DNA of 64,000 nucleotides from Escherichia coli (GTDB lineage Bacteria > Pseudomonadota > Gammaproteobacteria > Enterobacterales > Enterobacteriaceae). Numbering within the stretch: the stretch's first letter is position 1; each line of letters begins with the position of its first letter. The translations under genes were made by a program, and so were the position numbers. The stretch lies in NCBI RefSeq assembly GCF_003019035.1, contig NZ_CP027447.1; one strand, given 5' to 3'. Shown in pieces: positions 14,482-38,100 of this stretch. The notes below the pieces were generated by a model. It was not told the origin of the DNA. It was given only the letters and a program-made list of their open reading frames with translations, and made no database searches.

Positions 14482-16854
14482 TTAAAATTTCATGCTGACA
14501 TCAAGCCAGAAAGTACGGCCACTGGCGTAGGTCGCCACACCGGTATTCGTTGTATCAACAGCGGTTTTGCTATCCAGTACATTGAGAATATCGGCACTGA
14601 ACGTCAGGTTTTGTTGTTTCAGAAATTGTGGCGTCCAGGACAAGCGGGTGTCCCAGGTCAGGCTGCTATCCAGTTTTTCGTCAACATACTGCTTGTAATC
14701 TGAATATTCGCTGATGTATTGCGCATTCGTCTTACCCAGGATAATGCGAGCTTTACGCGCTTCTTGCCAGGTCAGCGTATTCGCCCACACCAACCCGTTC
14801 GGTTGATGCGTGAAATCCATGTTTAAGGAGATCTTTAGTGGATTATTAAAATCCGCCACTGGAACGCTATCGTAAGAGACCAGATTACCGTTATAAACCA
14901 CCTGGTTATCACCGGTATTGCTCTCCTCATAACCATTGTTTAACGACAAGTTGCCCTTGCTCTTGATATAGCTAAAGACAATTTGCGGGTTAATATCTAC
15001 CTGGCTGATATGCAGGGGTTCGGCCAGTTCAAAACTGAGGTTGAACGAATGCGTTTTGGTTTTGCCGTCGTTGTTATATTCAGTAATGGTGGTTTTAGTC
15101 GCGCTGTCGGTACGACTGCTTTTGCTGATTTGATCATGCGCTTCACGGTAAACATAGTTTGCGCGCGCAATAACGTTCTTACTGATTTTTTGCTGCAATC
15201 CCATTGCCAGTTCATCGTTATAAGGCGTTTTCAAATCCTGATAACGCGTCAGGGTTTTATTGCCTGATACCGATTCCGTCCAGCTATTGCGAATATCACG
15301 TAATCCCATATCAAGAATATTCCCGCCATAGTAACGGTTATAACCTGCGGTAATCATTGAGGTTTGATCAGCAAAAATATCCCATTCCGTCATAAAACGC
15401 GGGGAGATATTGTGGTTTGACAGATAGTTGTCATAGTCATACCGCACGCCGGGCATTAATGACACATTACGCCAGCTAATGCGATCCGCCATATACAGCG
15501 TGTAGTTGTCAATTCCCAGGCTGCCTTTACCTTTATGGTAAATGGTATGGTTAGTTTTCTTTCCGGCAGCATTAATCACATAGGATTCAGACTGGTTATG
15601 GCGTTCAGTCCATGCATCGGAATAGATGTATTCCGCGCCGAAGTAGGGTTGATGCGAAACATTACCCACGGTGAATTTTTGCCAGTCCAGGCGTGTTTTG
15701 AAGGTGTAATTATCTACAGCCTGGGAAATGTGTCCTAATCCGCCACGGGTGCAACGCCCTGAAATATCACCATATGTACATGAAAGTTCGGTGTACCAGA
15801 TGTCATGATCGTGACGGGTATAATCACTAATATGATCCCAACCAACGGTGGTACGCAGTTTGGCCCATGCGAGCTGGGTATCCATATCCCATGCCAGACC
15901 ATAGGATTTATTACCCATTTCGCGATCAGACTCCGGGAAGGTGCTGGTATTATAATCACGGCTGGAGCCGGTATATTTTAAGGTTAAATCGTGGGTAAAG
16001 CGGTCGCTGGCAAACCAGGTAAATTTGCTCAATGCAGTATCGATAACGTTTTTATACTGTGCCCGGCCGGCGACAATGCCGTCATTCGAAACATAATCCG
16101 CGCGGGTGATATCAGACTGGCGGCGCGATAAACCGGCGGTAACGCCAAAGTTATCAGCGAGTTCCTGATTAAACGACAAGGTATAAAAGTTCTTTTTAAA
16201 ATCTGGAGAGTAATAAGTACTTCCTGAAGAACCTTGATTAAATGCGCTCTTGTTATTCTCATCGATATGCGATGTTAACCAGTCCGAACGCGTAGTGCGA
16301 TAACCCAGTTTCACGCTGCTATCATCAGCGTTGAAGCGTTTGATCTTTGCATCAATTACCCCGCCATTGAAGCGACCAAATTCAACCGGCACAAAACTGT
16401 CATAAAGCGTCACATTGTCCAGTAAGCTGACATCAAGATAATAGCCCTGTGACATCCCGCTAATATTGGTTGCACTACTGGCATCGGACTCATTCGCTGG
16501 GTTCAGGTTATTCGTTGCACTAATGCCATCAATCAAATAGGCATTCTGGTAGGGCGACGCACCGTGAATAGAGATTTTCTCCGGGCGAATATCTCCCTGG
16601 TTCAATGAGGTACTTTGCGTTGAATCCATGCGTACCGCAGGGTTGGTTCTCAGCAGATCGCTGATATTGCCATTCCCGGTCGGTAAACGCTCGATGCTTT
16701 CACTGGTGTAATGCGTGTTGCCGTTTACGGGTACAGGGACAGGAGCATAGACCGTCATCTCTTCAAAAACATGCATGTACATATTTTTGTCATCGACGGC
16801 CTGCGCTACATCAGCGCCACATAAAATGACGCCAGGAATAAGAACTCGCTTCAT
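14482..16854 (-). CDS. yddB: TonB-dependent outer-membrane receptor
   Basis: 790-aa ORF with signal peptide and C-terminal aromatic residue (…DVSMKF); matches YddB. Confidence 0.9.
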   Translation of the reverse strand: MKRVLIPGVILCGADVAQAVDDKNMYMHVFEEMTVYAPVPVPVNGNTHYTSESIERLPTGNGNISDLLRTNPAVRMDSTQSTSLNQGDIRPEKISIHGASPYQNAYLIDGISATNNLNPANESDASSATNISGMSQGYYLDVSLLDNVTLYDSFVPVEFGRFNGGVIDAKIKRFNADDSSVKLGYRTTRSDWLTSHIDENNKSAFNQGSSGSTYYSPDFKKNFYTLSFNQELADNFGVTAGLSRRQSDITRADYVSNDGIVAGRAQYKNVIDTALSKFTWFASDRFTHDLTLKYTGSSRDYNTSTFPESDREMGNKSYGLAWDMDTQLAWAKLRTTVGWDHISDYTRHDHDIWYTELSCTYGDISGRCTRGGLGHISQAVDNYTFKTRLDWQKFTVGNVSHQPYFGAEYIYSDAWTERHNQSESYVINAAGKKTNHTIYHKGKGSLGIDNYTLYMADRISWRNVSLMPGVRYDYDNYLSNHNISPRFMTEWDIFADQTSMITAGYNRYYGGNILDMGLRDIRNSWTESVSGNKTLTRYQDLKTPYNDELAMGLQQKISKNVIARANYVYREAHDQISKSSRTDSATKTTITEYNNDGKTKTHSFNLSFELAEPLHISQVDINPQIVFSYIKSKGNLSLNNGYEESNTGDNQVVYNGNLVSYDSVPVADFNNPLKISLNMDFTHQPNGLVWANTLTWQEARKARIILGKTNAQYISEYSDYKQYVDEKLDSSLTWDTRLSWTPQFLKQQNLTFSADILNVLDSKTAVDTTNTGVATYASGRTFWLDVSMKF

Positions 16855-16891: not shown

Positions 16892-18577
16892 TTATAAAAC
16901 CGCGCTAATGTCACAAATATCATCGGCCAGGTTCCAGACACCGGGTTGATGTGTAACCATAATGACGCCGCTTGTGGGGAGTTTTTCTCGCACTAAACGC
17001 AGTAAGCGGATTGCCTCTTGTTCCTCAAGATGAGAGGTAGTTTCGTCAAGAAATATCCATTTCGGACGTCGTAAAATTAATCGAGCCAGGGCGATACGTT
17101 GTTTTTCGCCGCTGGAAAGAATATCTCCCCAGCGATCGTGGTCATGAATACGCGCAGCCAATTTCCCCAGTCCAACCTGATGCAGTACTTCACTCAACGA
17201 TTTATCGTCTACGGACAGGGGAAGTGCTTTACAAATAATCTCTTTCAGTAAGCCGGTTTTGATTAACGGTGTTTGTGACACATACCAACTGTCAGCAGGA
17301 GAAGAAATATCACCTTTAAACCACGGCCAGCAGTGGGATAATGTTTTAAGCAGTGTGGTTTTTCCCGCACCAGAGTAACCTTTCAGCAATAGCCATTTGC
17401 CTGGCAAAACATGAAAGTTCAGGTTCTCTAATATGATCTTATTATCAGGAGTACGAATACTCGCGTCAGCCACTTGTACCGCATGTTGGCAATTTTTAGG
17501 CTTATTCGTAGGGCGCTGTTCGGTGAGTTGATGGAACTCATACAAGCGATCGATAACCGCAGCCAGTTCAGCAAGTTCATCATATTTATAAATAAACCAG
17601 CTTAAATTGTTCGATACCAGCATAAATGCCTGGCGCGATTTCATCAGTCCGCCCAGATTGATCTGTCCGCTAATAAACTGCGGCAATAACAGAAAGTAGG
17701 GAAGAACGCTAAGCGAGCGCGAATAAATATTCTGCCAGTAATCAAGCCACCGCTGACGATTCATTAAACGATGCCAGTTCTCTTTAATGGTATGAAAATT
17801 TTCGCTCAACTCCTGGCGTTGTAGAGACTCAGCATTGCTTAGCGCAATCAGTTCTGCCTGCTTATTATGCTGCACAAGATTAGTTCGAAATGTCGCTTCG
17901 CTACGTTGTTTTTCCACATTAAGCGGACGAATACGTTTACCAACCTTATGGGTAAATAAAGTTCCACCGATCACAATGAGCACGACGGTATAGACCATAT
18001 ACCCCTGGATATTCCATTCAGTTCCACCAACAGTGAATGAGAGCGTACCCGCGCTTTGCCAAAGAATAACGGTAAAGGTGATCAGCATGCTAAGTGACTG
18101 GATGAAGCCAAATGAAAGACTGAGCGTTTTGCTGATCAGTAAGAGAATGTCTTCAGCGATACGTTGGTCAGGGTTATCTGTATTTTTATGCTCGCCGTAG
18201 ATCTGCGTGAAGTAGTAGTTTTTATCTGCAAACCAGCGATTAAGGTAGTAATCTGTTAACCATTCGCGCCAGCGAATAGTCAGTAGTTTAATTAACCATG
18301 TTTTGTTTACGGATATTAATACAAAGATCCCCAGCAGGGCAGGGAACCAAAGGACAAGCTGCCAAAGCTTATCAGTTTCTTTCTGGCTTAGCGCATTGAA
18401 AAAATCATTATTCCAGTCGTTTAACCAGACCTGAATTTTAACCACGCCAAGGATCATGGCGAGGATAATAATGATTAACAACACTGAAGTTTTATTATTC
18501 TTACGCAGCCAAAAGGGCTTCAGCAGACAGAGATACTTTGCTATCAACATACAAAACGTAATGGGAATGGTTATCAT
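16892..18577 (-). CDS. yddA: ABC transporter, fused permease/ATPase
   Basis: 561-aa ORF; Walker A GYSGAGKTT and ABC signature LSSGEKQR. Confidence 0.9.
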   Translation of the reverse strand: MITIPITFCMLIAKYLCLLKPFWLRKNNKTSVLLIIIILAMILGVVKIQVWLNDWNNDFFNALSQKETDKLWQLVLWFPALLGIFVLISVNKTWLIKLLTIRWREWLTDYYLNRWFADKNYYFTQIYGEHKNTDNPDQRIAEDILLLISKTLSLSFGFIQSLSMLITFTVILWQSAGTLSFTVGGTEWNIQGYMVYTVVLIVIGGTLFTHKVGKRIRPLNVEKQRSEATFRTNLVQHNKQAELIALSNAESLQRQELSENFHTIKENWHRLMNRQRWLDYWQNIYSRSLSVLPYFLLLPQFISGQINLGGLMKSRQAFMLVSNNLSWFIYKYDELAELAAVIDRLYEFHQLTEQRPTNKPKNCQHAVQVADASIRTPDNKIILENLNFHVLPGKWLLLKGYSGAGKTTLLKTLSHCWPWFKGDISSPADSWYVSQTPLIKTGLLKEIICKALPLSVDDKSLSEVLHQVGLGKLAARIHDHDRWGDILSSGEKQRIALARLILRRPKWIFLDETTSHLEEQEAIRLLRLVREKLPTSGVIMVTHQPGVWNLADDICDISAVL

Positions 18578-18788
18578 TAGCGAAAATTTATTGTGCCATC
18601 CAATGATTATCTATGGCAATGATATACTGATGAAATTTATTTAAGTATCATTTAACAATATGAAATATAAAGAAATATTTCATTTTCAGTGGTTATGGTT
18701 ATGCTATTGATAATCAAGGGTATTGCTAATGCCCTGACGCATACCTCGTAAGCCAGGATTTTCGCAAAGGAAGATGATGAAGACGAAA

Positions 18789-18814
18789 CACCCGACAGGA
18801 ATTTATGTCGGGTG
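18789..18814 (-). terminator. Stem-loop downstream of ydeM
   Basis: CACCCGACA ... TGTCGGGTG inverted repeat. Confidence 0.45.
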
Positions 18815-18867
18815 CCTTGTTAAGGTCATAAGAAGGAGGCTAAGAATGGAGCTAAGGGGGAGCGTTA

Positions 18868-20025
18868 TTAATTATTCTCCATTTGTTTTGCAACATCCAT
18901 AATGTGGTAAAGCGGTACTCTGTTCTTAGCTAACTCCACCATGGCGTTCATATAAGGTACCATGGTTGAAAAAAGGATTTTATAACCTTCGCAAAAATAG
19001 GAAACAGTCTCATTGTTTACTTTAGTAATACGATGCTTAGGGCAACCACCATTGCAGATAGGTTTATATGCACATTGCTGACATTTCGCTGAAATCCGTT
19101 TTTTTTGCGCTGTCAGTTGAACACTGTTCATCGTTTTGAGTTCAGATTTATTAATGTTTCCAATTTTGTACTGTGGATAGACAAAATGATCGCATTCGTA
19201 AATATCTCCATTACTTTCAACAACCAGATTATCCTTGCAGGATTCCTGGAAAATACAACTGGTATGCCCATTCCCCAAAAAACGGCTGACAAAGCTTTCA
19301 AACTGACGGATGAAAATTTCACCCACATCGTTTTTAACCCATTGCATAAAAATGGTTGACATAAACTTGCCATAAGCCGTGGGAGGCACAGAAAAATCAA
19401 TGATACGGAATGTGTTCTCACTATGACCACTGAAATCAATATTCGGCGTCCCGGTTTCTAGCAATTCGATAAATTGCATATGTTTACTGCCGATAGATTT
19501 TAAAAAATGATAAACCTCATGAGGGTAATGGACATTAACGTTATTAATGACGGTTAACGTATTAAACTCTACTTGATATGATTTCAGACGCTCGATGGCT
19601 GCTATCACTTTTGCAAAAGTACCGTTGCCTGAATTACTGCGTCTGTAACGGTCATGTAGCTCCTGGGGGCCATCGATCGAGATACCAACCAGAAACTCAT
19701 GTTCTTTGAGAAAGGCACACCATTCATTATTCAATAAAATGCCATTCGTTTGTAATGCATTAAAAATACGTTTTTGGCCTGCATAGCGTTGTTGATAGTG
19801 AATAACTTTACGGAAAAAATCCAGGCCAGCCAGAGTGGGTTCACCCCCTTGCCAGGTAAAATAGACCTGATTGCCAGACGCTGCGATATATTGTTTGATG
19901 AACTCTTTCAGAGTGCTGTCATCCATCCATTTTTCATGAGTAAACTGCGACTCTTTTTCAAGGTAAAAACAGTAATCACATTTGAGATTACATTGAAAAC
20001 TGGAGGGCTTGGCTGTAACGTGCAT
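18868..20025 (-). CDS. ydeM: Radical-SAM anaerobic sulfatase-maturating enzyme homolog
   Basis: CNLKCDYC radical-SAM motif near the N-terminus; matches YdeM (about 385 aa); start chosen at MHVTAK. Confidence 0.85.
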
Positions 20026-20076
20026 CGCTATCTCGCTCAATAAGGCGGCGGAAAAATCCGCCGCATGAAGGTTTAG

Positions 20077-21759
20077 TTATTTCGCTTCGCTTAGTGCTTT
20101 CTTGATATTGTTAAACTTCTCCTGATTTACCTCGCTAAGCGGTGGTTGGCTGCTGTCGATAAACTCTCTTACCACGCCTTGCATCTCTTTAACGACCTGC
20201 GGATTGGCGGCCGCAAGGTTATCTTTTTGCTGTAGATCCGTCAGTTTGTATAGACCTAACTGATTGTTTTCTACTGTATAGACTAGCGAATAATCGTTAT
20301 TTCTCACCGTATAAGAGAATTGGCTTAAATCCTCGGTGTTGGGGTTATGCGGGTAATCGTCTGACTGATGGCGGACAAATTTGTGGTAATTATCCCAGAA
20401 GGGAATATTTTCCTCATCAAACCAGTGAGAATAAGAGGTTATCCAGGTCAGATTTTTATGTGGCTCGCCTTGTTTCTTATCTTGCAACCACGGCAGCAAG
20501 GAAACGCCATCCAGCTTAAGGTCTTTTGGAATGCTGATATCGGCTGCATCAAGAGCTGTCGGGTAGAAATCCATTGCGGAAATCAGCTTGTCATAATTAC
20601 CGGGTTGAAGTTTTCCTTTCCACCACATAAACATTGGGGTGTGAGTACCGCCAGGATAAGTCTGACTCTTATAGCCTTTTTGCGCCCCGTTCAGCGGCAG
20701 AGGACCATCGATAACCGCACCATTATCGGAGGTAAAGAGAATAATAGTATTGTCATACTGTCCGTTTTTCTTCAGTTGTTCGAGAATGCGTTTTACACCC
20801 TGATCAACAGAATAAACGGAAGCGTAGTAGTTATCTGCTGTTTGACTACCGGTATTAAATTGCTTCTGATATTGCTCCGGTGCAGGATTATCATTTGGCA
20901 GGTGCGGAGCATTATAAGCCAGGTAAAGCATAAAAGGCTGGTCAAGTGTTTTGGCACGATCAACAACGCCAATTGCCTCATCGGTTAACTGATCGCTGAT
21001 ATAACCTTTTGCTGGGACGCGTTCACGGTTTTTGAACAGTGAAGGGGAGTTGTAATATGCCGTTCCTGCAGCGTGGAATCCCATAAAGTAATCAAAGCCA
21101 CGGTTTTGAGGTTGCCATTCTTCCGCAGAAAATGTGGTGAAGTTGTCATGATAGTCACGCGTTTGTTTATCTTCCGGTACCGGCACATTACTGATTTTTG
21201 ACAAGTGCCATTTACCTACTGCTGCAGTGTAATAACCATGATTCTGGAATAATTCAGGCAAGAAAGTTTCTGTTAGCGGAATACCATCCTGAGCATCGGT
21301 ATTGGAATAGACACCAAAGCGGGCGGGCGCTCGACCGGTCATTATTGCGGCGCGGGAGGGGCCGGAAACACCGTGCGCCACATAGCCGTTAGTAAAACGT
21401 ACGCCTTCATCCATTAATGAAAGGAGCGTCGGCGTTGATTTTTGCGCAGCTTCAATGGCTTTATCTATCCCTATTTTGTAGGTATCGACAACTTCACGAT
21501 TTTCCATTGTTTTTGGGTCAAAAGATCCCTTATCAAAAGGAAGTTGTCCATAACCAAGATCATCCATGGTCAGTACGATAATATTTGGCTTTCCTTTGGT
21601 ACTGTATTCAGTCGGCGTAAAGTCTGAGAAAGCAACGTTTGTTTTGGTTGCTTTCAGCTTTACATCATCTGCCGCATGAGCAGCAAATGCAGCCATACCA
21701 GATGCCAGTATCAAAGATATCGAGGTACTTACGACACTTTTCTTTAATGCAGACTTCAT
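20077..21759 (-). CDS. ydeN: Sulfatase (putative periplasmic)
   Basis: 560 aa from MKSALKK with signal peptide; the supplied ORF has a 60-codon upstream extension. Confidence 0.85.
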   Translation of the reverse strand: MKSALKKSVVSTSISLILASGMAAFAAHAADDVKLKATKTNVAFSDFTPTEYSTKGKPNIIVLTMDDLGYGQLPFDKGSFDPKTMENREVVDTYKIGIDKAIEAAQKSTPTLLSLMDEGVRFTNGYVAHGVSGPSRAAIMTGRAPARFGVYSNTDAQDGIPLTETFLPELFQNHGYYTAAVGKWHLSKISNVPVPEDKQTRDYHDNFTTFSAEEWQPQNRGFDYFMGFHAAGTAYYNSPSLFKNRERVPAKGYISDQLTDEAIGVVDRAKTLDQPFMLYLAYNAPHLPNDNPAPEQYQKQFNTGSQTADNYYASVYSVDQGVKRILEQLKKNGQYDNTIILFTSDNGAVIDGPLPLNGAQKGYKSQTYPGGTHTPMFMWWKGKLQPGNYDKLISAMDFYPTALDAADISIPKDLKLDGVSLLPWLQDKKQGEPHKNLTWITSYSHWFDEENIPFWDNYHKFVRHQSDDYPHNPNTEDLSQFSYTVRNNDYSLVYTVENNQLGLYKLTDLQQKDNLAAANPQVVKEMQGVVREFIDSSQPPLSEVNQEKFNNIKKALSEAK

Positions 21760-22080
21760 AAATGTTCCTCTTCTTATTGTACTTAATTCCAAAGTAATTT
21801 TACGAAGAGAAATAAGTGGATGTAAGTGAAGTGAGTCACATAAAGAGATAGCAGATTTAGCTAAAAAAAGAGAAATAACAGTCCATAAACTGTTGACATT
21901 ACTTTCTGTTCTACTAAGTAATTTCTCGTTGATAAACAACTAATCTATTGATATTTAACAAATTATTTAATTTCACCGACAAAATACCGAATTGAGATCA
22001 TAAATAATCATGCAACGGGTTATGCAAATGCATAAATATGTGATGGCTGTCACTTATTTATTTCAAGAAATATATCACCT

Positions 22081-22113
22081 AAAAACAACGCGGGGCAGGG
22101 AATGGCTGCCCCA
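22081..22113 (-). terminator. Rho-independent terminator after ydeO
   Basis: GGGGCAG-GGAATGG-CTGCCCC hairpin with a T-run on the minus strand. Confidence 0.7.
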
Positions 22114-22160
22114 TTTAATTCTTACGCAGCGTGTGTGGTTGACTACTCGTTAGCAAATAA

Positions 22161-22922
22161 TCAAATAGCTAAAGCACTCATCGTGTTGTCCGTGTTCATA
22201 CCGGTGTGCCTTTGACAACGGTACTCCTTAGAAACTCTCTTTGGACTGTTGCCGAAATGTTTGCGGAACGCATAAATAAAATAAGATGTACTCGCATAAC
22301 CACATTGTTCGGCAATTTTATTGACTGAACCTTCTACGCGTATCAAATTTTTTGCGTGCTGCATTCTGGCATCTAAAAGAATCTGTGAGAATGTCGTTTG
22401 CTCTTGCTTTAGTTTTTTCTTCAACAGGCTTTCACTGATGTACAGGCAGTCACAAATATCTTTCAGCTTCCATGGGTGCGCCAGCTTCATGTTGACAATA
22501 TTTCTCACTTTCCCGGAAACGGATAGCACACCGTTAGTTAATAGTGTAATGAAACCTTTGCATGCGGCAAAAATAGACAGGCAAGAAAAAAGCAAAAGTT
22601 CTGAAAAATTATGATGATTGCGTTCTTCCGAGTTGAGATAAGCAATCATTTCATTAAGCAATCCAGTCGGTACATTTGAAGCACGTAAAAACTTCGCAGG
22701 AACAGGCACCGTCACTGTCTGGATGTTAGTGCATTGTAGATATTTTTTAATGGTATTTTCATTAAATCCGATTTCTTTAAAATGCCGCTCATAAGGTTCA
22801 AAATGTGTACGAACAGCGTTATCTACCATCAGGATCTCGCCGTCAGAGAAGGCGTAATCTTTATCTAAAATGTTAGCGTTGAAAGCATGATGAATAAATA
22901 TAACAGAACAAACGAGCGACAT
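22161..22922 (-). CDS. ydeO: AraC-family acid-resistance regulator
   Basis: 253-aa ORF with C-terminal AraC-type HTH; downstream of safA. Confidence 0.9.
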   Translation of the reverse strand: MSLVCSVIFIHHAFNANILDKDYAFSDGEILMVDNAVRTHFEPYERHFKEIGFNENTIKKYLQCTNIQTVTVPVPAKFLRASNVPTGLLNEMIAYLNSEERNHHNFSELLLFSCLSIFAACKGFITLLTNGVLSVSGKVRNIVNMKLAHPWKLKDICDCLYISESLLKKKLKQEQTTFSQILLDARMQHAKNLIRVEGSVNKIAEQCGYASTSYFIYAFRKHFGNSPKRVSKEYRCQRHTGMNTDNTMSALAI

Positions 22923-22995: not shown

Positions 22996-23193
22996 TCAGT
23001 CTTGCAAACTATTGATAATGAAATGTGTAAGATCTCTTGCAATGCGACCCATTTCTGAAATACTCAGCTGATCAATTGCCGAAAAAATGGCTATCAACGT
23101 AAGTGTCAGTAATAAGACAACCACAATTACAGACATGATTTCTTTATAGTTGTCTCTTTGCGTGATTTTGTTTTTCACTGTGGTCGCATGCAT
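22996..23193 (-). CDS. safA: EvgS/PhoQ two-component connector small membrane protein
   Basis: 65-aa ORF matching SafA, with a single transmembrane segment. Confidence 0.85.
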   Translation of the reverse strand: MHATTVKNKITQRDNYKEIMSVIVVVLLLTLTLIAIFSAIDQLSISEMGRIARDLTHFIINSLQD

Positions 23194-23440: not shown

Positions 23441-25720
23441 TTAATTTGATGGTTCTAATTCAACCGGAATACTTTTATAGCCAGGAATGCCACTTAATGG
23501 ATCGTGGTTATCAAGTGTTAGCATGTGATTCGATTCTGGAAAATAGGTCACCAGTGAGCGGTCAGCCATAGGGTAAATGACCACTTTTAATCTATCCATG
23601 CGGCGTGAGCTTCGCTTACCGTCTGGCGTAAGCGCAATAAGATTAACTCTTTCGCCGTTTTTTACACGGCAAATTTTAGCTTGTTTAGCACTCATAAAGA
23701 CCACATCTCGTTGACCGAATACCCCTCGATAGCGATCATCCATACCATAAATCGTCGTGTTGTACTGATCGTGACTGCGTACTGTCGCCATGACTAGCTT
23801 ACTGTTAAACGCTGAAGAGGGATCTTCTAACAGCCCTTTACTGGTAATGAAATTAGCCTTACCTGACGGCGTCATCCAGCGCCTTTCAGCAGCTGCATTT
23901 ATCAGGTGAAAACCACCGGGATGACGGATGCGCTGGTTATAGTCGGCGAACTCTGGCAGCACAGCTTCAATGTCATTGCGAATGCGATCATAATCTTCCA
24001 CCAGATACTCCCAGGCTACCACGCTCTGGGGTAGTGCTGCCTGCGCGATTCCCGCGACCACTGCACACTCTGATTTCAGCATTACACCGGCGGGTTTTAA
24101 CACACCACGCGAGGCATGAATCATCGACATTGAATCTTCAACGGTTACCGCCTGCGCACCGCTTTTTTGCATGTCAATCTCGCTACGTCCCAGAACCGGC
24201 AGAATATAGCTATGCCGTGCGGTCAGCAGATGAGAGCGGTTAAGCTTAGTGGCTACGTGTACCGCCAAATCTAATTGCGTTAACGGTACAGCGCTCGCTT
24301 CCCGATCTGGCATTGCCAGCGCAAAGTTGCCCCCCATGCAGATCAATGCTCGAGCTTGCCCCGTACATATTGCTTGCATGCTGGCAATTGCAGCATGTCC
24401 AGGTGCATGAGGTGGGGTGAAACCATAGCGCTCACCCAGGCGAGCCAGAAACTCTGCAGACGGTTTCTCGGTGATACCGACGGTTCGGTCGCCCTGTACA
24501 TTAGAGTGACCTCGTAGTGGGCAGATGCCCGCACCAGGCTTGCCAATGTTACCTTTCATCAACAGCAGATTGACCAGTTGCTGTACATTCTGGGTACCAT
24601 GTTCGTGCTGAGTGATCCCCATTCCGTAACAGATAATGGTGCGTTCGGCAGCGGCATATGCATCAGCCAGTTCGGCGATTTGAGTCTGACTTAGTCCAGA
24701 AATACGCTCGATATCTTTCCACTCGGAATTGAGAACGTCACGGCGTAGCTCGTCAAAGCCGACGGTATGCGTTTGAATAAATTCGTCATCCAGCAATGAG
24801 GGCCGACCTGCGGCGCTTGCAGCATCATCGCGCTCAATTAACAGGCGCATCATCCCCTTGAGCAACGCCATATCACCACCAATGCGCACGTTGTAGTAGG
24901 CACTGGCCAACTGAGTCTCAGAGTTCGTCAGCATTTCAAACGGGTTTTGCGGTGCGGTAAATCGCTCCAGGCCACGTTCCTGTAGAGGATTGATGGCGAT
25001 CATTTTCGCTCCCCGTTTCACTAAAGCGCGCAACGAAGTCAACATGCGAGGGTGGTTTGTACCAGGGTTATGCCCAATGCAAATGACTAAATCGCATTTC
25101 TCAAAGTCTTCCAGCAACACGGTCCCTTTACCTACACCGATACTCGCTGCCAAACCCACACTGGTCGGTTCATGGCACATGTTGGAGCAGTCGGGGAAGT
25201 TATTGCTCCCGTATTCACGGGCAAAAAGCTGATAAAGAAAGGCAGCTTCATTGGAAGTGCGGCCCGAAGTATAGAATTCAACCTGATTGGGATCACTATA
25301 GCTTTGAAGGCGTTCGCCAATTTCGTCGAAAGCTTGTTGCCAGCTTAATGGCTTGTAACAGTCGCTGACGGCATCATATTTCAAAGGCTGGGTGAGACGC
25401 CCCGCAGCCTCAAGCTCGTGATCTCCCCAGGTAAGTAATGATTGAACCGTATTCTCAGCAAAGAAAGAGGCATTTACCTGCTTATCCGTGACTTCCCAGG
25501 CGATTGCTTTTGCGCCGTTTTCACAAATGTCGAATGACGCACTGTGCTTAGGATCTGGCCATGCACAACCCGGACAGTCAAAGCCCTCTGGCTTATTCAT
25601 GTCAAACATGGCAATAACATCCTGGCGTATATCCATCTGCTTACGTACTGCATTCGCTACGGATTTAACAGCACCCCAACCACCGGCAGCCCCCTGGTAG
25701 GATTCAATTTTTTTCTTCAT
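23441..25720 (-). CDS. ydeP: Molybdopterin-family oxidoreductase (acid resistance)
   Basis: 759-aa ORF matching YdeP. Confidence 0.9.
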
Positions 25721-28085: not shown

Positions 28086-30737
28086 TTAGCGACAGATTGC
28101 TGTCTGCTGGTTCAGTAAGGTACCAGGAGAAACTTCAGGAAGCTTGTACTCGACAATACAGTTTGAGTTTTTATCTTTGCCCCATGAAACCTGTAATTTC
28201 CCTGACTGTGGAAGTCCAGTCAGATAAACCTGACCGTTTTCCGCGACAATGCTGCCATTTTTATTCTCTCCATGTGTGACAATTGCACCGAATGGAACGC
28301 TCTTATTACCGTACTTCAACGTCATTAATACTTTCCCGCCGATTTGTGCATTAAATGTTGCTCTGGCAATAGCACCGTGAGTTGGGATGACAGTGACAAC
28401 GGTTTCATCCAGTTCAACATTATCTGCAAGGGAATTCGCGTTAAGAGCGACACGATTTTCTCTATATTCTGTCGCAAATGGTAATATGGCATAGCCACGC
28501 CAGTCGGTATGAATTCCGGTCTGGTTCTCTATTTTGACATTATCAGCGCCAGGAGCCTTAACCAGAACCATTGTGTCGCCCAGCGGCTGTCCAAAGGTGA
28601 TGCCATCAGCATGAGCAATAATCCCACCACTCATTCCGTAATAAATCTGGCTGCTGTCACCACTCCGACTGTAACCGACATTCGTATTACCGTAAGCTCC
28701 ACGATAATTAAGAGAACTGTAACCACTGGTGCCAGACGATGTATTACCCCCTTGGGTGTTACCGACCTGAACGCTATAATTCAGGTTATTATCCGGCAGC
28801 AGAGTGCCATAAACCCCTGATAGGTTGGTCATGCCGCCTTTCAAATCGTTTGACATACTGTAACTGGCGTTTGAATTACGAAATGCCGACTGACTGTCTG
28901 TACGCATCCAATGACTGAAGGGAACATTAAGCGTAAAAGCAAGTAAATGATCCCGATCGTTTTGCCATATATTATTGGAATAGCTGTAATTCAGCGAAGT
29001 CGTAATATCACCAAACGGCACATTTAATCCAAATGATATTTGCTGGTCGCTGCGTGACGTGTTCCAGTAACTTTGGCGACTGGCACTGAAAAATGTCGTA
29101 CCGTAATGTCCAAGCTGCTGAGAGATGCTTATTTGTTCCTGACCACGCTTACTGTAAAACAGATTAAAATAATCAATAAATAGTGTCTGCTCATTGCTGT
29201 CTCCGGTAGGAGGCTTGACGGTGTAACCACTCATTCGACTGTATGCACTGTCGGATAAGTTATAAAAACCTTGCGTAGAATAGCGATATCCTGCGACCTG
29301 GATATTGGTTCCCGTCTGGTAGAAGGATTTGCTGTAGACGGATTTAACCGATTGCCCGCTGTGACGGGTGCCATCTGCAAGTGTCGTATTGGCCTGCGTG
29401 ATATCGAAAGAAAAGGCACCAAAAAGTCCTAAATCTTTACCAATACCAAGGTTGAAGGCCTGATATTCTTCTGCAATTTGTATTCCGCCATAAGGTGTCC
29501 AGTTTCCTTTCAGACCATGCATCAAGCTTGCTTGTACGAACTTGGGGGAGCTTTGCAGGTTATTTCCACTACGATATTCCCCCATGGCAAGCGCATAACG
29601 CGTATATCCAGCACGTTGGAGAACCGGAACAGACGAATAAGGAACATATAATGTCTGAATACTGCCGTCTGCCTCTTTTATAGTTACTTGCAGATCACCA
29701 CCATTGGCCGCAGAGTTGATATCATCAATAGTAAAAGGGCCGGGTGGAACAGTAGTCTGATAAACATCGTATCCGTTCTGTTTTACACTCACTTGTGCGG
29801 TGCCACGGGCAATACCATGAATCACCGGAGCGAAACCATGTTGGCTATCGGGCAACATCGCTTCTGTTGAATTTATTTTTAGGCCACGAAAGTTCACACT
29901 ATCAAAAATATCGCCATCGGTATAACTATCACCTACCGTTAAGCGTGAGCGTAAGGGAATAATGTCACGTTCAGCCGACGTATTGATATGCTGCCATTTA
30001 TTGCTGTCAGATGAATTGCTACTCCCACTGTTATAACTCCACGTTGAGTTATCGCGCAGTCGCCAACTACCAATGTTGATGCCACTCTGTAAATTCAAAT
30101 ATGCATAGTTGGATTTTCCAGCATTATGGTTACTACGATTATTAATAGAATTACCATTAAAACTATAGTTTAGAAGCCCAGCATTTATTCCTTCTTCCCA
30201 CAGATCAGGAGAAACATAGCCGCGAGCCATTCTGCCAACATATATTTGCGGAACGGAGAGTGACAGATGTTGCTGACCAACATCAAACTCAGATGATGCG
30301 TCAGCCAAACGATCCTGGAGTGGTGTGCATGCGCTGTTGTCCGGCACATGTTTTTCTGCCGAATGTTCCTTGTTGTCTAATAATGCTGATTTTTTTATGC
30401 CAAGACTGACAAGAAGGTCTGTACTCAGGCATGGGATGAGATCTGCGTTATTATCATCTGCAATAAAAGTAATATCCCGACTAGTCATAAATTCGTCGTT
30501 CAAATAAATGTCGACCCGATATGTACCAGGTGGTGCCTCGCGCCCCTTAGTAAAGGCGGATAAATCGACAGATTCAGCAAGATCATTGCTTAAAAACCGT
30601 GGATTAAAATAATACTCTGCGTCAACGGGAAATACCGCAGTTGCTAAGCCAAGGGCAATGGTAAGCCGTGCAAAGCGAGGCAGTAGTAACACCTGATGCA
30701 TACGATATGCCTTAAATGCGGCACGAAAGGCTGTCAT
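28086..30737 (-). CDS. ydeT: Fimbrial usher, full length (FimD-like); ydeT is a fragment in K-12
   Basis: 883 aa, collinear with FimD (…YFNPRFL… to …CR); exact start uncertain (M1 or M13). Confidence 0.85.
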   Translation of the reverse strand: MTAFRAAFKAYRMHQVLLLPRFARLTIALGLATAVFPVDAEYYFNPRFLSNDLAESVDLSAFTKGREAPPGTYRVDIYLNDEFMTSRDITFIADDNNADLIPCLSTDLLVSLGIKKSALLDNKEHSAEKHVPDNSACTPLQDRLADASSEFDVGQQHLSLSVPQIYVGRMARGYVSPDLWEEGINAGLLNYSFNGNSINNRSNHNAGKSNYAYLNLQSGINIGSWRLRDNSTWSYNSGSSNSSDSNKWQHINTSAERDIIPLRSRLTVGDSYTDGDIFDSVNFRGLKINSTEAMLPDSQHGFAPVIHGIARGTAQVSVKQNGYDVYQTTVPPGPFTIDDINSAANGGDLQVTIKEADGSIQTLYVPYSSVPVLQRAGYTRYALAMGEYRSGNNLQSSPKFVQASLMHGLKGNWTPYGGIQIAEEYQAFNLGIGKDLGLFGAFSFDITQANTTLADGTRHSGQSVKSVYSKSFYQTGTNIQVAGYRYSTQGFYNLSDSAYSRMSGYTVKPPTGDSNEQTLFIDYFNLFYSKRGQEQISISQQLGHYGTTFFSASRQSYWNTSRSDQQISFGLNVPFGDITTSLNYSYSNNIWQNDRDHLLAFTLNVPFSHWMRTDSQSAFRNSNASYSMSNDLKGGMTNLSGVYGTLLPDNNLNYSVQVGNTQGGNTSSGTSGYSSLNYRGAYGNTNVGYSRSGDSSQIYYGMSGGIIAHADGITFGQPLGDTMVLVKAPGADNVKIENQTGIHTDWRGYAILPFATEYRENRVALNANSLADNVELDETVVTVIPTHGAIARATFNAQIGGKVLMTLKYGNKSVPFGAIVTHGENKNGSIVAENGQVYLTGLPQSGKLQVSWGKDKNSNCIVEYKLPEVSPGTLLNQQTAICR

Positions 30738-35182: not shown

Positions 35183-38100
35183 TTACCAGCTATATTTCAC
35201 ACCCAGCATGCCCTGAGTATCGCTATAGCCTTTATCACCTAGTTGCACACCGACATTCCCCCACAGGCTAAGGTTGTTATTTACTTTCGCCTCAACCCCG
35301 GTACGTACTTCACCGAGATTACGCGCACCATCACGGCTTACGTTTTGACCATTCATCTTCACGGCGTAGACTTTGCTGTTGTTGATCCAGTTCGCTTCAA
35401 TGTAAGGCTGGAACTCACGCTGTTTACCATTGTCACGCTGGTGATGACTGTTCTGGTAGGTTTTCACCCCAAGTCGTGTTTGCACGTTTCCGTCTCCTTC
35501 CGTTTCAATGCGTGTTCCGTCTTTCCGGGTATGGTCAGAATCTTTCACACCCATCCAGGTGATTTGTACCTGTGGCTGGACGTACCAGGTATTCAGCGTC
35601 CCTTCGCTGCCGCTAAATGTTCCCGCTTCAAAGGTATACCCACCCTCAACAGAGGCCGTCACACCGCGAGAATCATAGTCGTCAGCAGAACGGTTATCGG
35701 AACTGACGCTGTTATCAAACCAGTTATACAGCGCCCAGCTGTCAACATAAGCGCCGGTCTTATTCGCATCGTTCTGATACCAGGTCGCGTACAGTCCTGC
35801 GCTGTAACCGCTGATGCGCCCATCCGATTTATAACCCACATGATTACTCTGAGTATTACTGTGCTGATTGGCATAGCCTGCCATCACGCCGAGATGCCAG
35901 CGATCCTGCGCGTTGCTACTCCACTGCGCCAAATCGCCGCCTAGCTGCAATACATAGCGGTTAGCCTGAGTATTTAGCTGACCATCACCGGTCCTGAAAC
36001 GTTCGTGCCCTCCGACATGACGCATCCATATACTGGTTGCCGAATCCTGAACTCGCAGTGAATCTGTATACTGCGGCTCACCCAGACGGTCGTGTAAGCG
36101 ATGGCTAAACAGCGAGTTGGCTGCGGCAATGTTGCTGATATAGCTTCCGGCCTCCGGGCGATAAACTGATGGGCCTTCCGGATCCACAACAGGGGGATTA
36201 TTGATGGGATCGGGTGTATCCGCTGGCGTTACGCCGTCCCATTTACTGGTCAGATACCAGTTTTTCTCGTCATTCCCCTTCCCTTTAGCCAGCGTGTAGA
36301 CGTAAGCCCCAGCTTCGACAGTTCCGGTGGTCAGCGCGAAGTTACCTGCAGAATTACCGCCAACCTCAATGAGTTCAATACCGTTGACCGTTTGTGCACC
36401 GACGCCGCCAATGTTATTAACCCGAACGCGGGTATTGCCCTGCGTATCACCTTTTACGTTCATTTTATCCGTGGGGGAATTATCGCTACCCAGCGTCGCG
36501 TTGAACGTCATCAGGCCATTGTTTCCGGTATAGTTACCGTTAACGGTCAGTACATTCCCCGGTTTCCCCCCTTCGCTGTTCATTTGAACCGTGCCACCAT
36601 TCTCCAGGTTACCGCCGACAGTGGTTTTAGCGACACGCAGTGTCCCCCCAGGCATAACGTTCACATCACCTGCAGTGGTGACATTTCCCGACATCACACC
36701 GCTGTTATGGATATTAATGTGCTGACTTGCCATATTAATGGCAGAGTCGGAACCGAAAGCAATTTCACCACCCACGATATCCGTCGTACCCTGGTACGCC
36801 GCGGAATCGTTGTTAAGAGTCAGGATCCCGGACCCCAGTTTTGTCACACCGCCGCTACCGGTGATACTGTGCGTCATCGCCCAGCTACGCTCAGTGGAGA
36901 TGGTGAGCAGGCCATTATTGATAACGGAAGCATCACCCAGGTTTTTCTGCTCGTTGACGCTGAGCGCGCTGCCTGTATCAATGTTGAATTGCCCCACAAA
37001 GCGGCTATTATCGCCATCCAGCTCTACGTCTGTCCTGGCGGTTGCGCTCACGATACCCTTCCCGCTTATGCTATTACGCAGTTCGCCGGTCACGTTTTTT
37101 AGCGTTAACAGACCGTCATTGGCAATATTTCCTCTGCCTAACCCCTGCGTATTATCGAGGCTGACTTCCGCATTTGGGCTAACGCTGGTTAACGCATTGT
37201 AGCGTGCATTAAGCCCCTCGATAGCCAGCGTTCCCCCTGTAACATTCAGGTTTCCGCCACCTGTCAGTTCACCCTGACTGATCCCACCTTTATTCACCGT
37301 CAGCGACCCTTCTTTGAACAAAACAGTCGAACCCATCTGCCCGGTGAATGTCTCTACCGTCTGCGTCGATCCATTAAGATCGACGATGGCCGCGTTGCTG
37401 ATGTTCAGTTCCCGGGTGTTGCCCAGCGCGCCATCCGCATCGGTACGTAATGTCCCCATCTGAACGTAGGTTGCCCCCTGATAGTCGTTCTGACCGTTGG
37501 AAAGCGAAACCTGTCGCACCGTATTGATTGCCAGATCCCCTTCACCACCGATTTTTGCCGACATATCGGCCGTTGCGCCATAGGCTCCGCCATGTTCGGC
37601 TAATGTCAGCTTTTGCCCACCATGGATGTTCAGCGCTTTCAGCCCATAGTTAACGTACAAACCATCACCTGGTGCGGTCGTGAGGCGGAATCCATAATCA
37701 CCCTCGGCGACCACCGTTCCGTTTTGCGCAATGTGTAACGTTTTGTCCGCTTCCACCTCGTCGCCCTGTAAATCACGTAACGTTAATGAGCCACCCGACC
37801 CAATAACCGTTTGCGCCTTCACCAGTTGAACGCCGACATGGTTATCATCGTGTTCCAGCAAATTGAGCGTCGTCAGAGGGTTATTCGCCATGGGATCATT
37901 CCACGGTTTAGGCACGTCGATAAGCACGTCGCCCGTCCCGTTTACCTGATAGTTACGGCCTTTCCAGGTGTAGTCACCCGCGCCGACAGCCAGCGTATCG
38001 ACGCTGATATATCCCTCCGCAAGCGTCGCAGCAGGTATATCCGTATCGAAAGTGAGCGTACCGCCATTCATGGCTAGTCCACCAATGGATTGCTCTCCCA

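Follow-up and report, generated by a model that had tools for sequence, protein, structure and literature searches.

Sequence analysis of the ydeN-ydeM locus of Escherichia coli: a predicted Ser-type sulfatase and its adjacent radical-SAM maturase

RESULTS

Organization of the locus

The ydeN-ydeM pair spans positions 18868-21759 of the window (the whole stretch of E. coli DNA that was analysed, 64,000 nt), and these outer limits, as given by the ORF listing and RefSeq, match exactly those of an earlier sequence-only reading of the same DNA. The gene calls were based on the ORF listing and on how RefSeq annotates two genomes, a 100%-identical strain and a K-12 derivative, and they define two genes:

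20077..21759, minus strand: ydeN, precursor of a predicted Ser-type S1 (formylglycine-dependent) sulfatase, 560 aa (Pfam, RefSeq annotation, PDB relatives, AF2/Foldseek)
18868..20025, minus strand: ydeM, predicted radical-SAM/SPASM anaerobic sulfatase-maturating enzyme, 385 aa (TIGR03942, 4K36 alignment, RefSeq annotation)

Transcription runs through ydeN first, then through a 51-nt spacer, and then into ydeM. The sequence-only reading had placed ydeN directly downstream of ydeM, which holds in plus-strand coordinates only; both genes lie on the minus strand, and in the direction of transcription ydeN is the 5′ gene. A longer version of the ydeM ORF would start with a TTG at 20040; the annotated start is the ATG at 20025, where all orthologues align. 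The pair had been described as AT-rich and as lying beside ydeO-safA, and both descriptions are accurate: the GC content is 38.8% in ydeM and 44.3% in ydeN vs 47.2% in the window (32.4% in the ydeO-ydeN spacer), and in the RefSeq annotation ydeO (22161-22922) and safA (22996-23193) directly adjoin the pair. No Rfam family reached its gathering threshold anywhere in the window.

YdeN has the motifs and catalytic residues of a Ser-type S1 sulfatase

Two regions of ydeN are relevant for its assignment:

21673..21759, minus strand: Sec-type signal peptide of YdeN, residues 1-29, cleavage after A-H-A (read from the translation)
21331..21366, minus strand: formylglycine target motif S132-G-P-S-R-A-A-I-M-T-G-R143 (translation and alignments)

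YdeN matched the Pfam family Sulfatase (PF00884) over the full length of the profile (positions 1-301 of 301; E 1.3e-70; 238.6 bits vs a cut-off of 25). Its N-terminus, MKSALKKSVVSTSISLILASGMAAFAAHA followed by ADD, consists of a basic n-region (K2/K6/K7), a hydrophobic core and a cleavage site between AHA and ADD, and neither a twin arginine nor a lipobox was present in this part of the translation. The signal peptide and the sulfatase fold that had been attributed to YdeN are both borne out by these results. The sequence-only reading had also proposed a check for the C/S-x-P-x-R formylglycine motif; it was found complete and in its Ser-type form, and it agrees with the pattern (C/S)-x-(P/A)-x-R followed by x4-T-G. 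Residues S132, G133, P134, S135 and R136 were invariant in an alignment of 18 relatives, and SGPSR was present in 118/118 full-length close homologues, so that all close homologues are Ser-type. S132 aligned with the Cys/FGly position of ZgCgsA (9hh3), and the metal-binding and catalytic set (DD, R, K-x-H, H, DN, K) with its counterparts in 9hh2. Residues D66, D67, S132, R136, K183, H185, H286, D345, N346 and K364 were invariant among the 18 relatives, down to 55% identity. Since YdeN carries no cysteine at all, only Ser132 can become formylglycine. The AF2 model of YdeN was of moderate confidence (pTM 0.80, mean pLDDT 70.7), with pLDDT <50 for residues 1-47 and low confidence also around residues 130-133, and Foldseek matched it with probability 1.00 to >50 S1 structures. 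By domain, motif and catalytic residues, YdeN is assigned to the S1 formylglycine-dependent sulfatases, and a sulfatase activity is predicted for it.

YdeM is predicted to be an anaerobic sulfatase-maturating enzyme

The cluster-binding regions of YdeM are the following:

19969..19992, minus strand: radical-SAM cluster motif C12-x3-C16-x2-C19 (translation; invariant in 16 orthologues)
18991..19257, minus strand: SPASM region, with D279 and the eight cysteines that would ligate two auxiliary [4Fe-4S] clusters (anSMEcpe alignment)

YdeM matched the NCBIfam equivalog TIGR03942 (anaerobic sulfatase maturase) over profile positions 1-362 of 363, at 505.1 bits vs a cut-off of 349.45 (E 1.1e-151), and this was the only equivalog cut-off that it passed. 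Given this E value, the matches to Pfam Radical_SAM (E 1.5e-22) and SPASM (E 3.5e-06) are not due to chance. YdeM fell below the cut-off of NF010321 (257 bits vs 441), another anaerobic sulfatase maturase equivalog which we take to be the clostridial-type anSME model, and below that of a second maturase model, NF010308 (357 bits vs 484); the latter result places YdeM and aslB in distinct subgroups. The CxxxCxxC radical-SAM motif claimed for YdeM can be read in its translation as C12-NLK-C16-DY-C19, and a SAM-binding GGE motif (G60-G61-E62-P63) was also invariant in the 16 orthologues. When YdeM was aligned with anSMEcpe (4K36; E 1.3e-63, residues 4-359), its 11 cluster-binding cysteines and the Asp base were all found to be kept. 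The auxiliary-cluster cysteines C257, C263, C278 and C328, and C315, C318, C324 and C345, fall in the columns of anSMEcpe C255/C261/C276/C330 and C317/C320/C326/C348, and D279, the Asp base that follows the third cysteine, corresponds to D277; the eight cysteines and D279 are invariant in the 16 orthologues. On the basis of its equivalog score, its motifs and its association with a sulfatase, YdeM is assigned as an anaerobic sulfatase-maturating enzyme; conversion of Ser132 is predicted, and we infer that YdeN is the protein in which it modifies this residue. Going by its title, Benjdia et al. 2007 (FEBS Lett 581:1009) reported that aslB/ydeM deletion mutants pointed to a third maturation system, which leaves YdeM a putative maturase in vivo.

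A hairpin separates the two genes

Two hairpins were detected, one between the genes and one after ydeM:

20045..20064, minus strand: intercistronic GC-rich hairpin, GCGGCGGA-UUUU-UCCGCCGC (RNA fold vs shuffles)
18786..18817, minus strand: terminator-like hairpin after ydeM, followed by UUCGUCUUC (RNA fold, -22.1 kcal/mol, z -4.80, 0/200 shuffles)

A consensus terminator scan called neither of them, and both were judged instead by folding against 200 shuffles. The intercistronic hairpin has a stem of 8 bp (-18.7 kcal/mol, z -3.06; 1/200 shuffles equally stable), and on its 3′ side lie the tail CUUAUUG (20038-20044) and then the ribosome-binding region of ydeM. An equivalent hairpin of different sequence was present in the corresponding spacers of all the proteobacterial relatives examined; in 11 of 12 spacers the fold beat 195 or more of the 200 shuffles, and the stems differ in sequence. 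The E. coli tail is a poor U-tract, and clearer U-tracts were found in Leminorella, Grimontia, Citrobacter and Cedecea. The intercistronic hairpin is probably a leaky terminator or an RNA-stabilising element. The spacers of the relatives are too divergent to be aligned without fitting them to the structure.

The upstream region carries a candidate promoter and CRP sites

The following elements were located between ydeO and ydeN:

21797..21826, minus strand: candidate sigma-70 promoter of ydeN, CTTACA, 18-nt spacer, TAAAAT (consensus scan, 9/12 matches)
21766..21772, minus strand: Shine-Dalgarno sequence AAGAGGA of ydeN (read from the sequence; invariant in four Escherichia sequences)
22039..22054, no strand assigned: CRP site TGTGATGGCTGTCACT in the ydeO-ydeN spacer (one mismatch to TGTGA-N6-TCACA)
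21825..21840, no strand assigned: second CRP-like site, TGTGACTCACTTCACT in the minus-strand reading, overlapping the candidate -35 (one mismatch to the consensus)

The block that contains the candidate promoter hardly differs between E. coli and E. albertii, despite a coding dS of 1.4. The K-12/ETEC version of the first CRP site, TGTGATGGATGTCACT, is bound by CRP in SELEX, ChIP-seq and Footprint-seq (PMC3105977, PMC4287617, PMC12871828). The second site, whose centre is ~30.5 nt upstream of the candidate -10, is kept in E. albertii and may likewise be functional. According to two publications, ydeM is co-transcribed with ydeN, and the operon is directly targeted by AraC, and is repressed by AraC with arabinose (PMC10878103, PMC3738151); in the mouse gut, ydeM was up-regulated in an araC mutant (PMC10878103). 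GadX represses ydeN-ydeM (PMC4918353), and in one transcriptome the sulfonated dye FD&C Red 40 induced ydeN and no other gene (PMC10653809). The published regulation by AraC/arabinose, GadX and CRP matches the conditional expression that had been suggested for the pair. A search for the AraC operator TAGC-N7-TCCATA with up to two mismatches gave no hit in the spacer (40 in the whole window vs 50 expected), and with three mismatches it returned weak candidates only, e.g., TAGCTAAATCTGCTATC (21847-21863).

The pair is an old acquisition under strong purifying selection

Among complete E. coli genomes, 5390 of 5426 (99.3%) carry the two genes, and so does E. albertii; their acquisition is therefore old. 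Related loci were compared over a range that reaches from Escherichia to Fusobacterium, and in 21 of the 23 a sulfatase gene is followed by an adjacent maturase gene on the same strand; these loci include Yersinia, Salmonella, Aeromonas, Iodobacter, Grimontia, Psychromonas, Anaerobiospirillum and Fusobacterium. The scan of the genome collection used exact peptide words and gave 16 loci, and it shows presence in those genera, not prevalence. The conserved order and the TIGR03942 match uphold the proposed pairing of a sulfatase with a radical-SAM maturase, as for anaerobic formylglycine generation. The flanks of the cassette differ in every genus and are unrelated to each other, integrase/relaxase genes or IS elements adjoin it in Salmonella and Aeromonas, and its distribution is patchy (Enterobacterales, Aeromonadales, Vibrionales and one betaproteobacterium, at 70-84% identity), all of which supports the view of the sequence-only reading that the pair was acquired. 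A porin gene precedes the sulfatase gene in two loci, and none of the genomes examined had a glycoside hydrolase or sugar transporter gene linked to the cassette.

These loci also bear on the idea that YdeM modifies a peptide other than YdeN, as some SPASM enzymes do, and that its adjacency to ydeN is incidental. RiPP maturase models did match YdeM, all of them below their cut-offs (DynA 220 bits, DarW 166, DarE 157), whereas only the anaerobic sulfatase maturase equivalog was passed (505 bits vs 349). Moreover, the sulfatase adjacent in the 21 loci is Ser-type across phyla, the identities of the sulfatase and maturase proteins drop broadly together (82/68% in Salmonella, 72/52% in Anaerobiospirillum and 54/46-50% in Fusobacterium), and no conserved small precursor-peptide gene was found beside the ydeM homologues in the loci examined. 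We give this idea almost no weight, and keep YdeM as the predicted maturase of YdeN.

Within Escherichia, dN/dS was 0.013-0.026 for ydeN and 0.039-0.058 for ydeM, at dS values of up to 1.4-1.8, and therefore both genes are under strong purifying selection. These values, the retention of the pair in 99.3% of the complete E. coli genomes, the invariant catalytic and cluster residues, and the up-regulation of ydeM in the araC mutant in the mouse gut argue against a silent relic, i.e., a pair that is intact by sequence, yet unexpressed or non-functional in E. coli. Such a relic would fit the AT-rich region (32-44% GC), which is typical of silenced foreign DNA, and the repression of the pair by at least two regulators; an IS2 insertion was found in ydeM of one genome (H10), and a further E. 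coli sulfatase copy has lost its adjacent maturase. It would also fit the dependence on atsB when the Ser-type sulfatase of Klebsiella is to be activated in E. coli. Taken together, we judge a relic to be very improbable, and read the pair as a functional one.

The nearest solved relatives of YdeN are carbohydrate sulfatases

The best PDB matches of YdeN were S1_19 sulfatases (sequence E 3e-52 to 3e-50; Foldseek E 4e-29), with a TM of 0.77-0.79 on the target and an identity of only 25-29% over the whole fold. The next-nearest fold group were the S1_16 4S-Gal/GalNAc sulfatases BT3796 and BT3057 (7OZA and 7OZ9, ranks 25 and 41); the nearest solved relatives were all carbohydrate sulfatases, and the Pseudomonas arylsulfatase ranked 45th in Foldseek. 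The entry 7OZA was deposited as ‘putative secreted sulfatase ydeN’. A likeness of YdeN to the GlcNAc-6-sulfatase BT4656 has been suggested (PMC10878103). As its closest relative, BT4656 (5G2V) was rejected, with fold rank 42, 18% identity and an E of 3e-30 vs 3e-52 for S1_19.

The catalytic motifs of YdeN are identical in the alignment to those of the S1_19 enzymes ZgCgsA (9HH2-4), PsS1_19B (6PSM) and Ps i-CgsB (6B0J), which are carrageenan galactose-4-sulfatases. Unlike the S1_19 enzymes (450-480 residues), YdeN is longer by about 80-110 residues and has an insertion of ~27 residues (82-108) that aligns to none of 9hh2. Furthermore, S1_19 enzymes are Cys-type, marine and encoded in carrageenan loci, whereas YdeN is Ser-type, occurs in gut bacteria and has no glycan locus. 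At 28-29% identity, S1_19 is too distant for its specificity to be transferred to YdeN. BT3796 and BT3057 of Bacteroides thetaiotaomicron act on gut host glycans, and share 20-23% identity with YdeN. The sequence-only reading gave YdeN no known substrate, and this agrees with the literature, where its substrates are not reported (PMC10878103); we found no published report of YdeN activity or of formylglycine detection, the SulfAtlas paper does not mention YdeN, and its UniProt accession gave no mention either. Small sulfated carbohydrates that enter the periplasm are the most likely class of substrate, and as a best guess we would name a unit of 4-O-sulfated galactose or N-acetylgalactosamine that derives from glycans of the host or the diet.

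DISCUSSION

The ydeN-ydeM pair is already known: RefSeq annotates it in every E. coli genome, earlier papers discuss it, and its co-transcription, its repression by AraC with arabinose and by GadX, the binding of CRP upstream and the aslB/ydeM deletion mutants have been published. It represents a textbook-style example of the anaerobic formylglycine route rather than a new kind of biology. The conserved intercistronic hairpin and the S1_19/S1_16 enzymes as the closest solved structures are new here, and are small additions.

We consider it very likely that the whole locus is explained by a ydeN-ydeM operon that encodes a YdeM-matured periplasmic sulfatase, with a ratio of the two products set by the hairpin, and with carbon and acid regulation. 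In this model, a two-gene operon on the minus strand would be transcribed from the AT-rich ydeO-ydeN spacer, and the YdeN precursor, with its Sec signal peptide and still unfolded in the cytoplasm, would be the substrate of YdeM. YdeM would bind three [4Fe-4S] clusters, one for SAM cleavage on C12/C16/C19 and two auxiliary ones in its SPASM domain, and would abstract a hydrogen from the C-beta of Ser132 in S-G-P-S-R, so that C-alpha-formylglycine is generated without oxygen. The matured YdeN would then reach the periplasm, where the hydrated formylglycine would cleave the sulfate ester by the standard S1 mechanism, with a divalent metal held by D66, D67, D345 and N346, and with R136, K183, H185, H286 and a lysine (361/364) also taking part. 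The spacer hairpin, located just before the ydeM ribosome-binding site, would leave more message for the sulfatase than for its catalytic maturase. The published binding of CRP, and repression by AraC/arabinose and by GadX, place ydeNM under the control of carbon source and acid stress.

The pair resembles AtsA/AtsB of Klebsiella pneumoniae, a Ser-type, Sec-exported arylsulfatase with an adjacent cytoplasmic radical-SAM/SPASM maturase that holds three [4Fe-4S] clusters. Like AtsA/AtsB, YdeN has the Ser-type S-x-P-x-R motif and a Sec signal peptide, YdeM is encoded next to it, and the serine would be converted to formylglycine without oxygen. In Klebsiella atsB precedes atsA, and in ydeN-ydeM the sulfatase gene comes first. 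AtsA is said, in the title of Murooka 1990, to be under sulfur and tyramine control, whereas CRP, AraC and GadX bind or regulate ydeNM. The anSME mechanism is covered in a review that also mentions AtsB (PMC7771511). YdeN might serve sulfur scavenging and not carbon foraging, as a broad arylsulfatase/alkyl-ester sulfatase like Klebsiella AtsA that releases sulfate under sulfur limitation, and the same architecture as atsBA, the fact that glycan-degrading genes are linked in no locus examined, and the induction of ydeN as the sole gene by FD&C Red 40 (PMC10653809) speak for it. Against it, the published regulators respond to carbon and acid (CRP, AraC with arabinose, GadX), we found no report of sulfur-starvation control of ydeN, the nearest solved relatives are all carbohydrate sulfatases with the Pseudomonas arylsulfatase only 45th, and two loci have a porin gene ahead of the sulfatase gene, which is consistent with a specific solute being taken up. 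Hence, sulfur scavenging appears unlikely to us, and a sulfatase for small sulfated carbohydrates is preferred.

Like anSMEcpe of Clostridium perfringens (4K36-4K39), YdeM keeps the CX3CX2C motif, the eight auxiliary cysteines and the catalytic Asp. The natural target of anSMEcpe is a Cys-type sulfatase, and the neighbour of YdeM is Ser-type. BT3796 and BT3057 are reportedly (Benjdia 2011) matured by one genome-wide anSME, not by an adjacent one. In E. coli, aslA/aslB is a second pair of a sulfatase and an anSME-like gene, outside the window, and aslB and ydeM have been named together as the two putative anSME genes of this species (PMC8379841; Benjdia et al. 2007).

A bolder joint reading, which we hold only tentatively and think probably wrong as a whole, is that ydeN-ydeM is a self-contained cassette, mobile by horizontal transfer, of a sulfatase plus its private maturase, with a conserved leaky terminator between them that keeps the ratio of sulfatase to maturase high, and with a periplasmic Gal/GalNAc-4-O-sulfatase as its product. 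If true, gut Proteobacteria and Fusobacteria that do not degrade glycans would cross-feed on sulfated fragments (chondroitin, mucin, carrageenan) released by primary degraders, and such cross-feeding would be under the carbon-hierarchy control of CRP/AraC. The substrate of YdeN and the role of YdeM in vivo would tell whether E. coli, and the enteric pathogens with the cassette (Yersinia, some Salmonella, Aeromonas), can desulfate sulfated sugars of the host or the diet in the anoxic gut.

Organization of the ydeN-ydeM locus

The RefSeq annotation of matching E. coli records was transferred onto the window, which placed the genes of the region as follows.

Genes of the region (RefSeq annotation, transferred)
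14482-16854, minus strand: yddB
16892-18577, minus strand: yddA
18868-20025, minus strand: ydeM, 385 aa
20077-21759, minus strand: ydeN, 560 aa
22161-22922, minus strand: ydeO
22996-23193, minus strand: safA
23441-25720, minus strand: ydeP

Both are minus-strand genes, so transcription reaches ydeN before ydeM, which trails it by 51 nt. The sequence-only reading had placed ydeN directly downstream of ydeM, and this is reversed in the biological sense; polarity apart, the rest of its observation was confirmed, and the limits that it drew (18868-21759) coincide exactly with the stop of ydeM and the start of ydeN. The GC content is 38.8% in ydeM, 44.3% in ydeN and 47.2% in the window. The window is chromosomal E. 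coli DNA. Its stretch 18600-22200 shares 100% identity with strain CFSAN061771 and 98.1% with a K-12 derivative, and has matches in 5390 of the 5426 complete E. coli genomes. The finding holds and is not new, the pair being annotated in RefSeq and the subject of regulatory studies. Deletion mutants involving ydeM were reportedly made by Benjdia in 2007. The minor additions made here are the gene polarity, the conservation and mobility of the cassette (sulfatase gene followed by maturase gene on one strand), an intercistronic hairpin and the nearest solved relatives.

Two further observations concern ydeM. The YneP ORF (annotated in RefSeq under this name or as a hypothetical protein; about 18777-18902, plus strand) is convergent with ydeM and overlaps its final 35 nt. 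In one human E. coli isolate (NZ_OW967802.1) an IS2 insertion splits ydeM into two annotated fragments, so that this isolate keeps ydeN intact and is a natural knockout of the maturase.

YdeN carries a complete serine-type formylglycine motif

The 560-aa YdeN protein gave a full-profile match to Pfam Sulfatase (E 1.3e-70). Its translated N-terminus (MKSALKK, a hydrophobic core, then AHA|ADD; no twin arginine, no lipobox) forms a classical Sec signal peptide. The formylglycine target motif had been proposed as the test of the sulfatase assignment, and residues 132-143 read S-G-P-S-R-A-A-I-M-T-G-R, a complete serine-type motif. YdeN has no cysteine at all, which is unusual for a protein of 560 aa, so that Ser132 is the sole possible formylglycine precursor and the Ser-type assignment is unambiguous. 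SGPSR was found in all 118 full-length homologues with at least 70% identity. The metal- and sulfate-binding residues of S1 sulfatases are all there (D66, D67, R136, K183, H185, H286, D345, N346 and K361/K364); they align with the equivalent motifs of ZgCgsA, a solved enzyme of SulfAtlas subfamily S1_19, and, K361 excepted, are invariant among 18 relatives down to 55% identity. The AlphaFold model built from the homologue alignment was moderate (pLDDT 70.7, pTM 0.80), and when this predicted fold was compared with solved structures, S1 sulfatases were matched with probability 1.00. Every S1-sulfatase feature that can be judged from sequence is present in YdeN.

YdeM has the features of an anaerobic sulfatase maturase of the 4K36 type

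YdeM (385 aa) has the C12-x3-C16-x2-C19 motif together with Radical_SAM and SPASM domains, and its residues 4-359 align with 4K36, the solved Clostridium perfringens maturase (E 1.3e-63). The alignment retains all eight auxiliary-cluster cysteines, four for each of two clusters (C257, C263, C278 and C328; C315, C318, C324 and C345), and D279, the Asp that follows the third cysteine. Neither the cluster cysteines nor D279 nor the GGEP SAM-binding motif varies across 16 orthologues. One rival reading is that YdeM is an unrelated SPASM enzyme: RiPP-maturase models also match the protein, every one under its cut-off, and the NCBIfam equivalog TIGR03942 'anaerobic sulfatase maturase' scores 505 bits against a cut-off of 349. 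By family, YdeM is an anaerobic sulfatase-maturating enzyme (anSME) of the 4K36 type, and each trait of this family that can be read from a protein sequence is present. The assumed anSME mechanism comprises three steps, namely generation of the 5′-deoxyadenosyl radical, abstraction of the target C-beta hydrogen and an electron relay via the auxiliary clusters (PMC7771511). In function, ydeN-ydeM would correspond to the AtsA/AtsB arrangement of Klebsiella.

The sulfatase-maturase cassette is conserved and its context changes

The genomic context of relatives was surveyed, and a single genome of each species was scanned for close relatives. A YdeM homologue in the same orientation lay immediately 3′ of the sulfatase gene at 21 of the 23 loci. 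The cassette was found in Enterobacterales (E. albertii, Yersinia pestis, Salmonella enterica, Leminorella, Citrobacter, Cedecea and Mixta), in other Gammaproteobacteria (Aeromonas veronii, Grimontia, Psychromonas and Anaerobiospirillum), in the betaproteobacterium Iodobacter and in Fusobacterium. The two exceptions (L005, 3847-5544; L006, 2729-4426) are a second YdeN-like sulfatase present in some E. coli strains, of 565 aa and 77% identity, with the SGPSR motif, a porin gene directly 5′ and an IS110 transposase 3′. No YdeM homologue was found beside it at either locus, so that this enzyme would need a maturase encoded elsewhere.

The YdeN and YdeM identities drop broadly in parallel (82/68% in Salmonella, 72/52% in Anaerobiospirillum and 54/46-50% in Fusobacterium), and the flanking genes are a different set in each genus. 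The Salmonella cassette (L007, 1537-5843) adjoins a phage-type integrase, a TraI-type relaxase and a UvrD-like helicase, and that of Aeromonas veronii (L004, 327-5210) has IS elements on both sides and a porin gene upstream; these contexts suggest carriage on mobile elements. Genus-specific flanks, the integrase and relaxase, and the IS elements support the proposal that the pair was acquired. Another rival reading holds that the genes are a silent relic. The dN/dS values are 0.013-0.026 for ydeN and 0.039-0.058 for ydeM, at dS values reaching 1.4-1.8 relative to E. albertii; Escherichia acquired the pair long ago and has kept both genes.

The pair also occurs, at 99.8%/99.2% protein identity (YdeN/YdeM) to the window, on a contig assigned to 'Candidatus Nanosynbacter sp.' (JARKOR010000108.1, locus L010); E. 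coli DNA has almost certainly contaminated this metagenome-assembled genome.

A hairpin separates the two genes

The 51-nt spacer contains the following feature.

Intercistronic feature
20045-20064, minus strand: hairpin GCGGCGGA-UUUU-UCCGCCGC, followed by CUUAUUG and then the ydeM start region

A GC-rich hairpin of 8-11 bp, differing in sequence, was present in the spacers of all proteobacterial relatives examined (L003, L004, L007, L008, L011, L013-L016, L019 and L020), usually with a short U-rich tract next and then directly the maturase ribosome-binding site; it was absent from three Fusobacterium spacers of 28-34 nt. When the spacers were compared with 200 dinucleotide shuffles, at most 5 shuffles folded as well in 11 of 12 cases (z -2.3 to -5.1), and the Salmonella spacer folded more weakly (z -1.4). 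With only 15-25 nt between the hairpin and the start codon, a promoter of its own for the maturase gene would not fit, and hence the maturase must come from read-through. The hairpin probably acts as a leaky terminator or as an RNA-stabilising element, so that the sulfatase message would exceed the maturase message. The U-tract of the E. coli hairpin (CUUAUUG) is poor, and a consensus terminator scan did not call this hairpin.

Regulation of ydeNM

The ydeM gene is reported to share its transcript with ydeN, and ydeN is a direct AraC target, and the operon is over-expressed in an araC deletion strain (PMC10878103); AraC is found on this region only when arabinose is present (PMC3738151). The ydeN promoter is also bound by GadX, which reduces transcript levels (PMC4918353). 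CRP is bound upstream of ydeN at TGTGATGGATGTCACT, as detected by SELEX, ChIP-seq (in ETEC) and Footprint-seq, with a Kd estimated by Footprint-seq at about 1.8 nM (PMC3105977, PMC4287617, PMC12871828).

Candidate regulatory elements upstream of ydeN
22039-22054: distal CRP site TGTGATGGCTGTCACT, the window version of the published site
21825-21840: second CRP-like site (predicted), which overlaps the -35 element of the promoter candidate below
21826-21797, minus strand: best ydeN promoter candidate, CTTACA-18-TAAAAT, from a consensus scan

The proximal CRP-like site falls within a block that hardly differs between E. coli and E. albertii. Five near-consensus CRP sites were predicted across the 64-kb window, two of them inside the 400-bp ydeO-ydeN spacer. 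Sulfur scavenging is a further rival reading, and literature searches found no sulfur-starvation regulator of ydeNM. Taken with the carbon and acid regulators, this leans toward a carbohydrate-related role. None of the three rivals alters the overall assessment of the pair.

Within ydeN, TGTCAAAAATCAGTAATG (21186-21203, minus strand) appears in PMC10294691 among the intragenic binding sites of PhoB, many of which, by the title of the paper, are transcriptionally inert.

Nearest solved enzymes and the substrate of YdeN

No substrate of YdeN has been reported (PMC10878103). By sequence, the nearest solved enzymes were the S1_19 carrageenan galactose-4-sulfatases (E 3e-52 to 3e-50) and then an S1_16 enzyme (5e-39). 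The predicted fold left the ranking unchanged, with S1_19 followed by the B. thetaiotaomicron 4S-Gal/GalNAc sulfatases BT3796 and BT3057. At 25-29% identity no specificity is transferable to YdeN, and a 4-O-sulfated galacto-sugar would be our best guess, held with low confidence. The genomes examined had no hydrolase or transporter genes linked to the cassette, and a porin gene was located upstream of the sulfatase in two loci. The GlcNAc-6-sulfatase BT4656, used for comparison in PMC10878103, was rejected as the closest relative, since it ranked 42nd by fold with 18% identity.

Other intact genes in the window

Elsewhere in the window, 28086-30737 (minus strand) encodes an intact fimbrial usher of 883 aa that has PapC_N, Usher and PapC_C domains; for its counterpart in the K-12 derivative, ydeT, the annotation gives an incomplete pseudogene. 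At 35183-40603 (minus strand) lies the gene of an autotransporter, also intact, of 1806 aa with ESPR, Pertactin and beta-domain.
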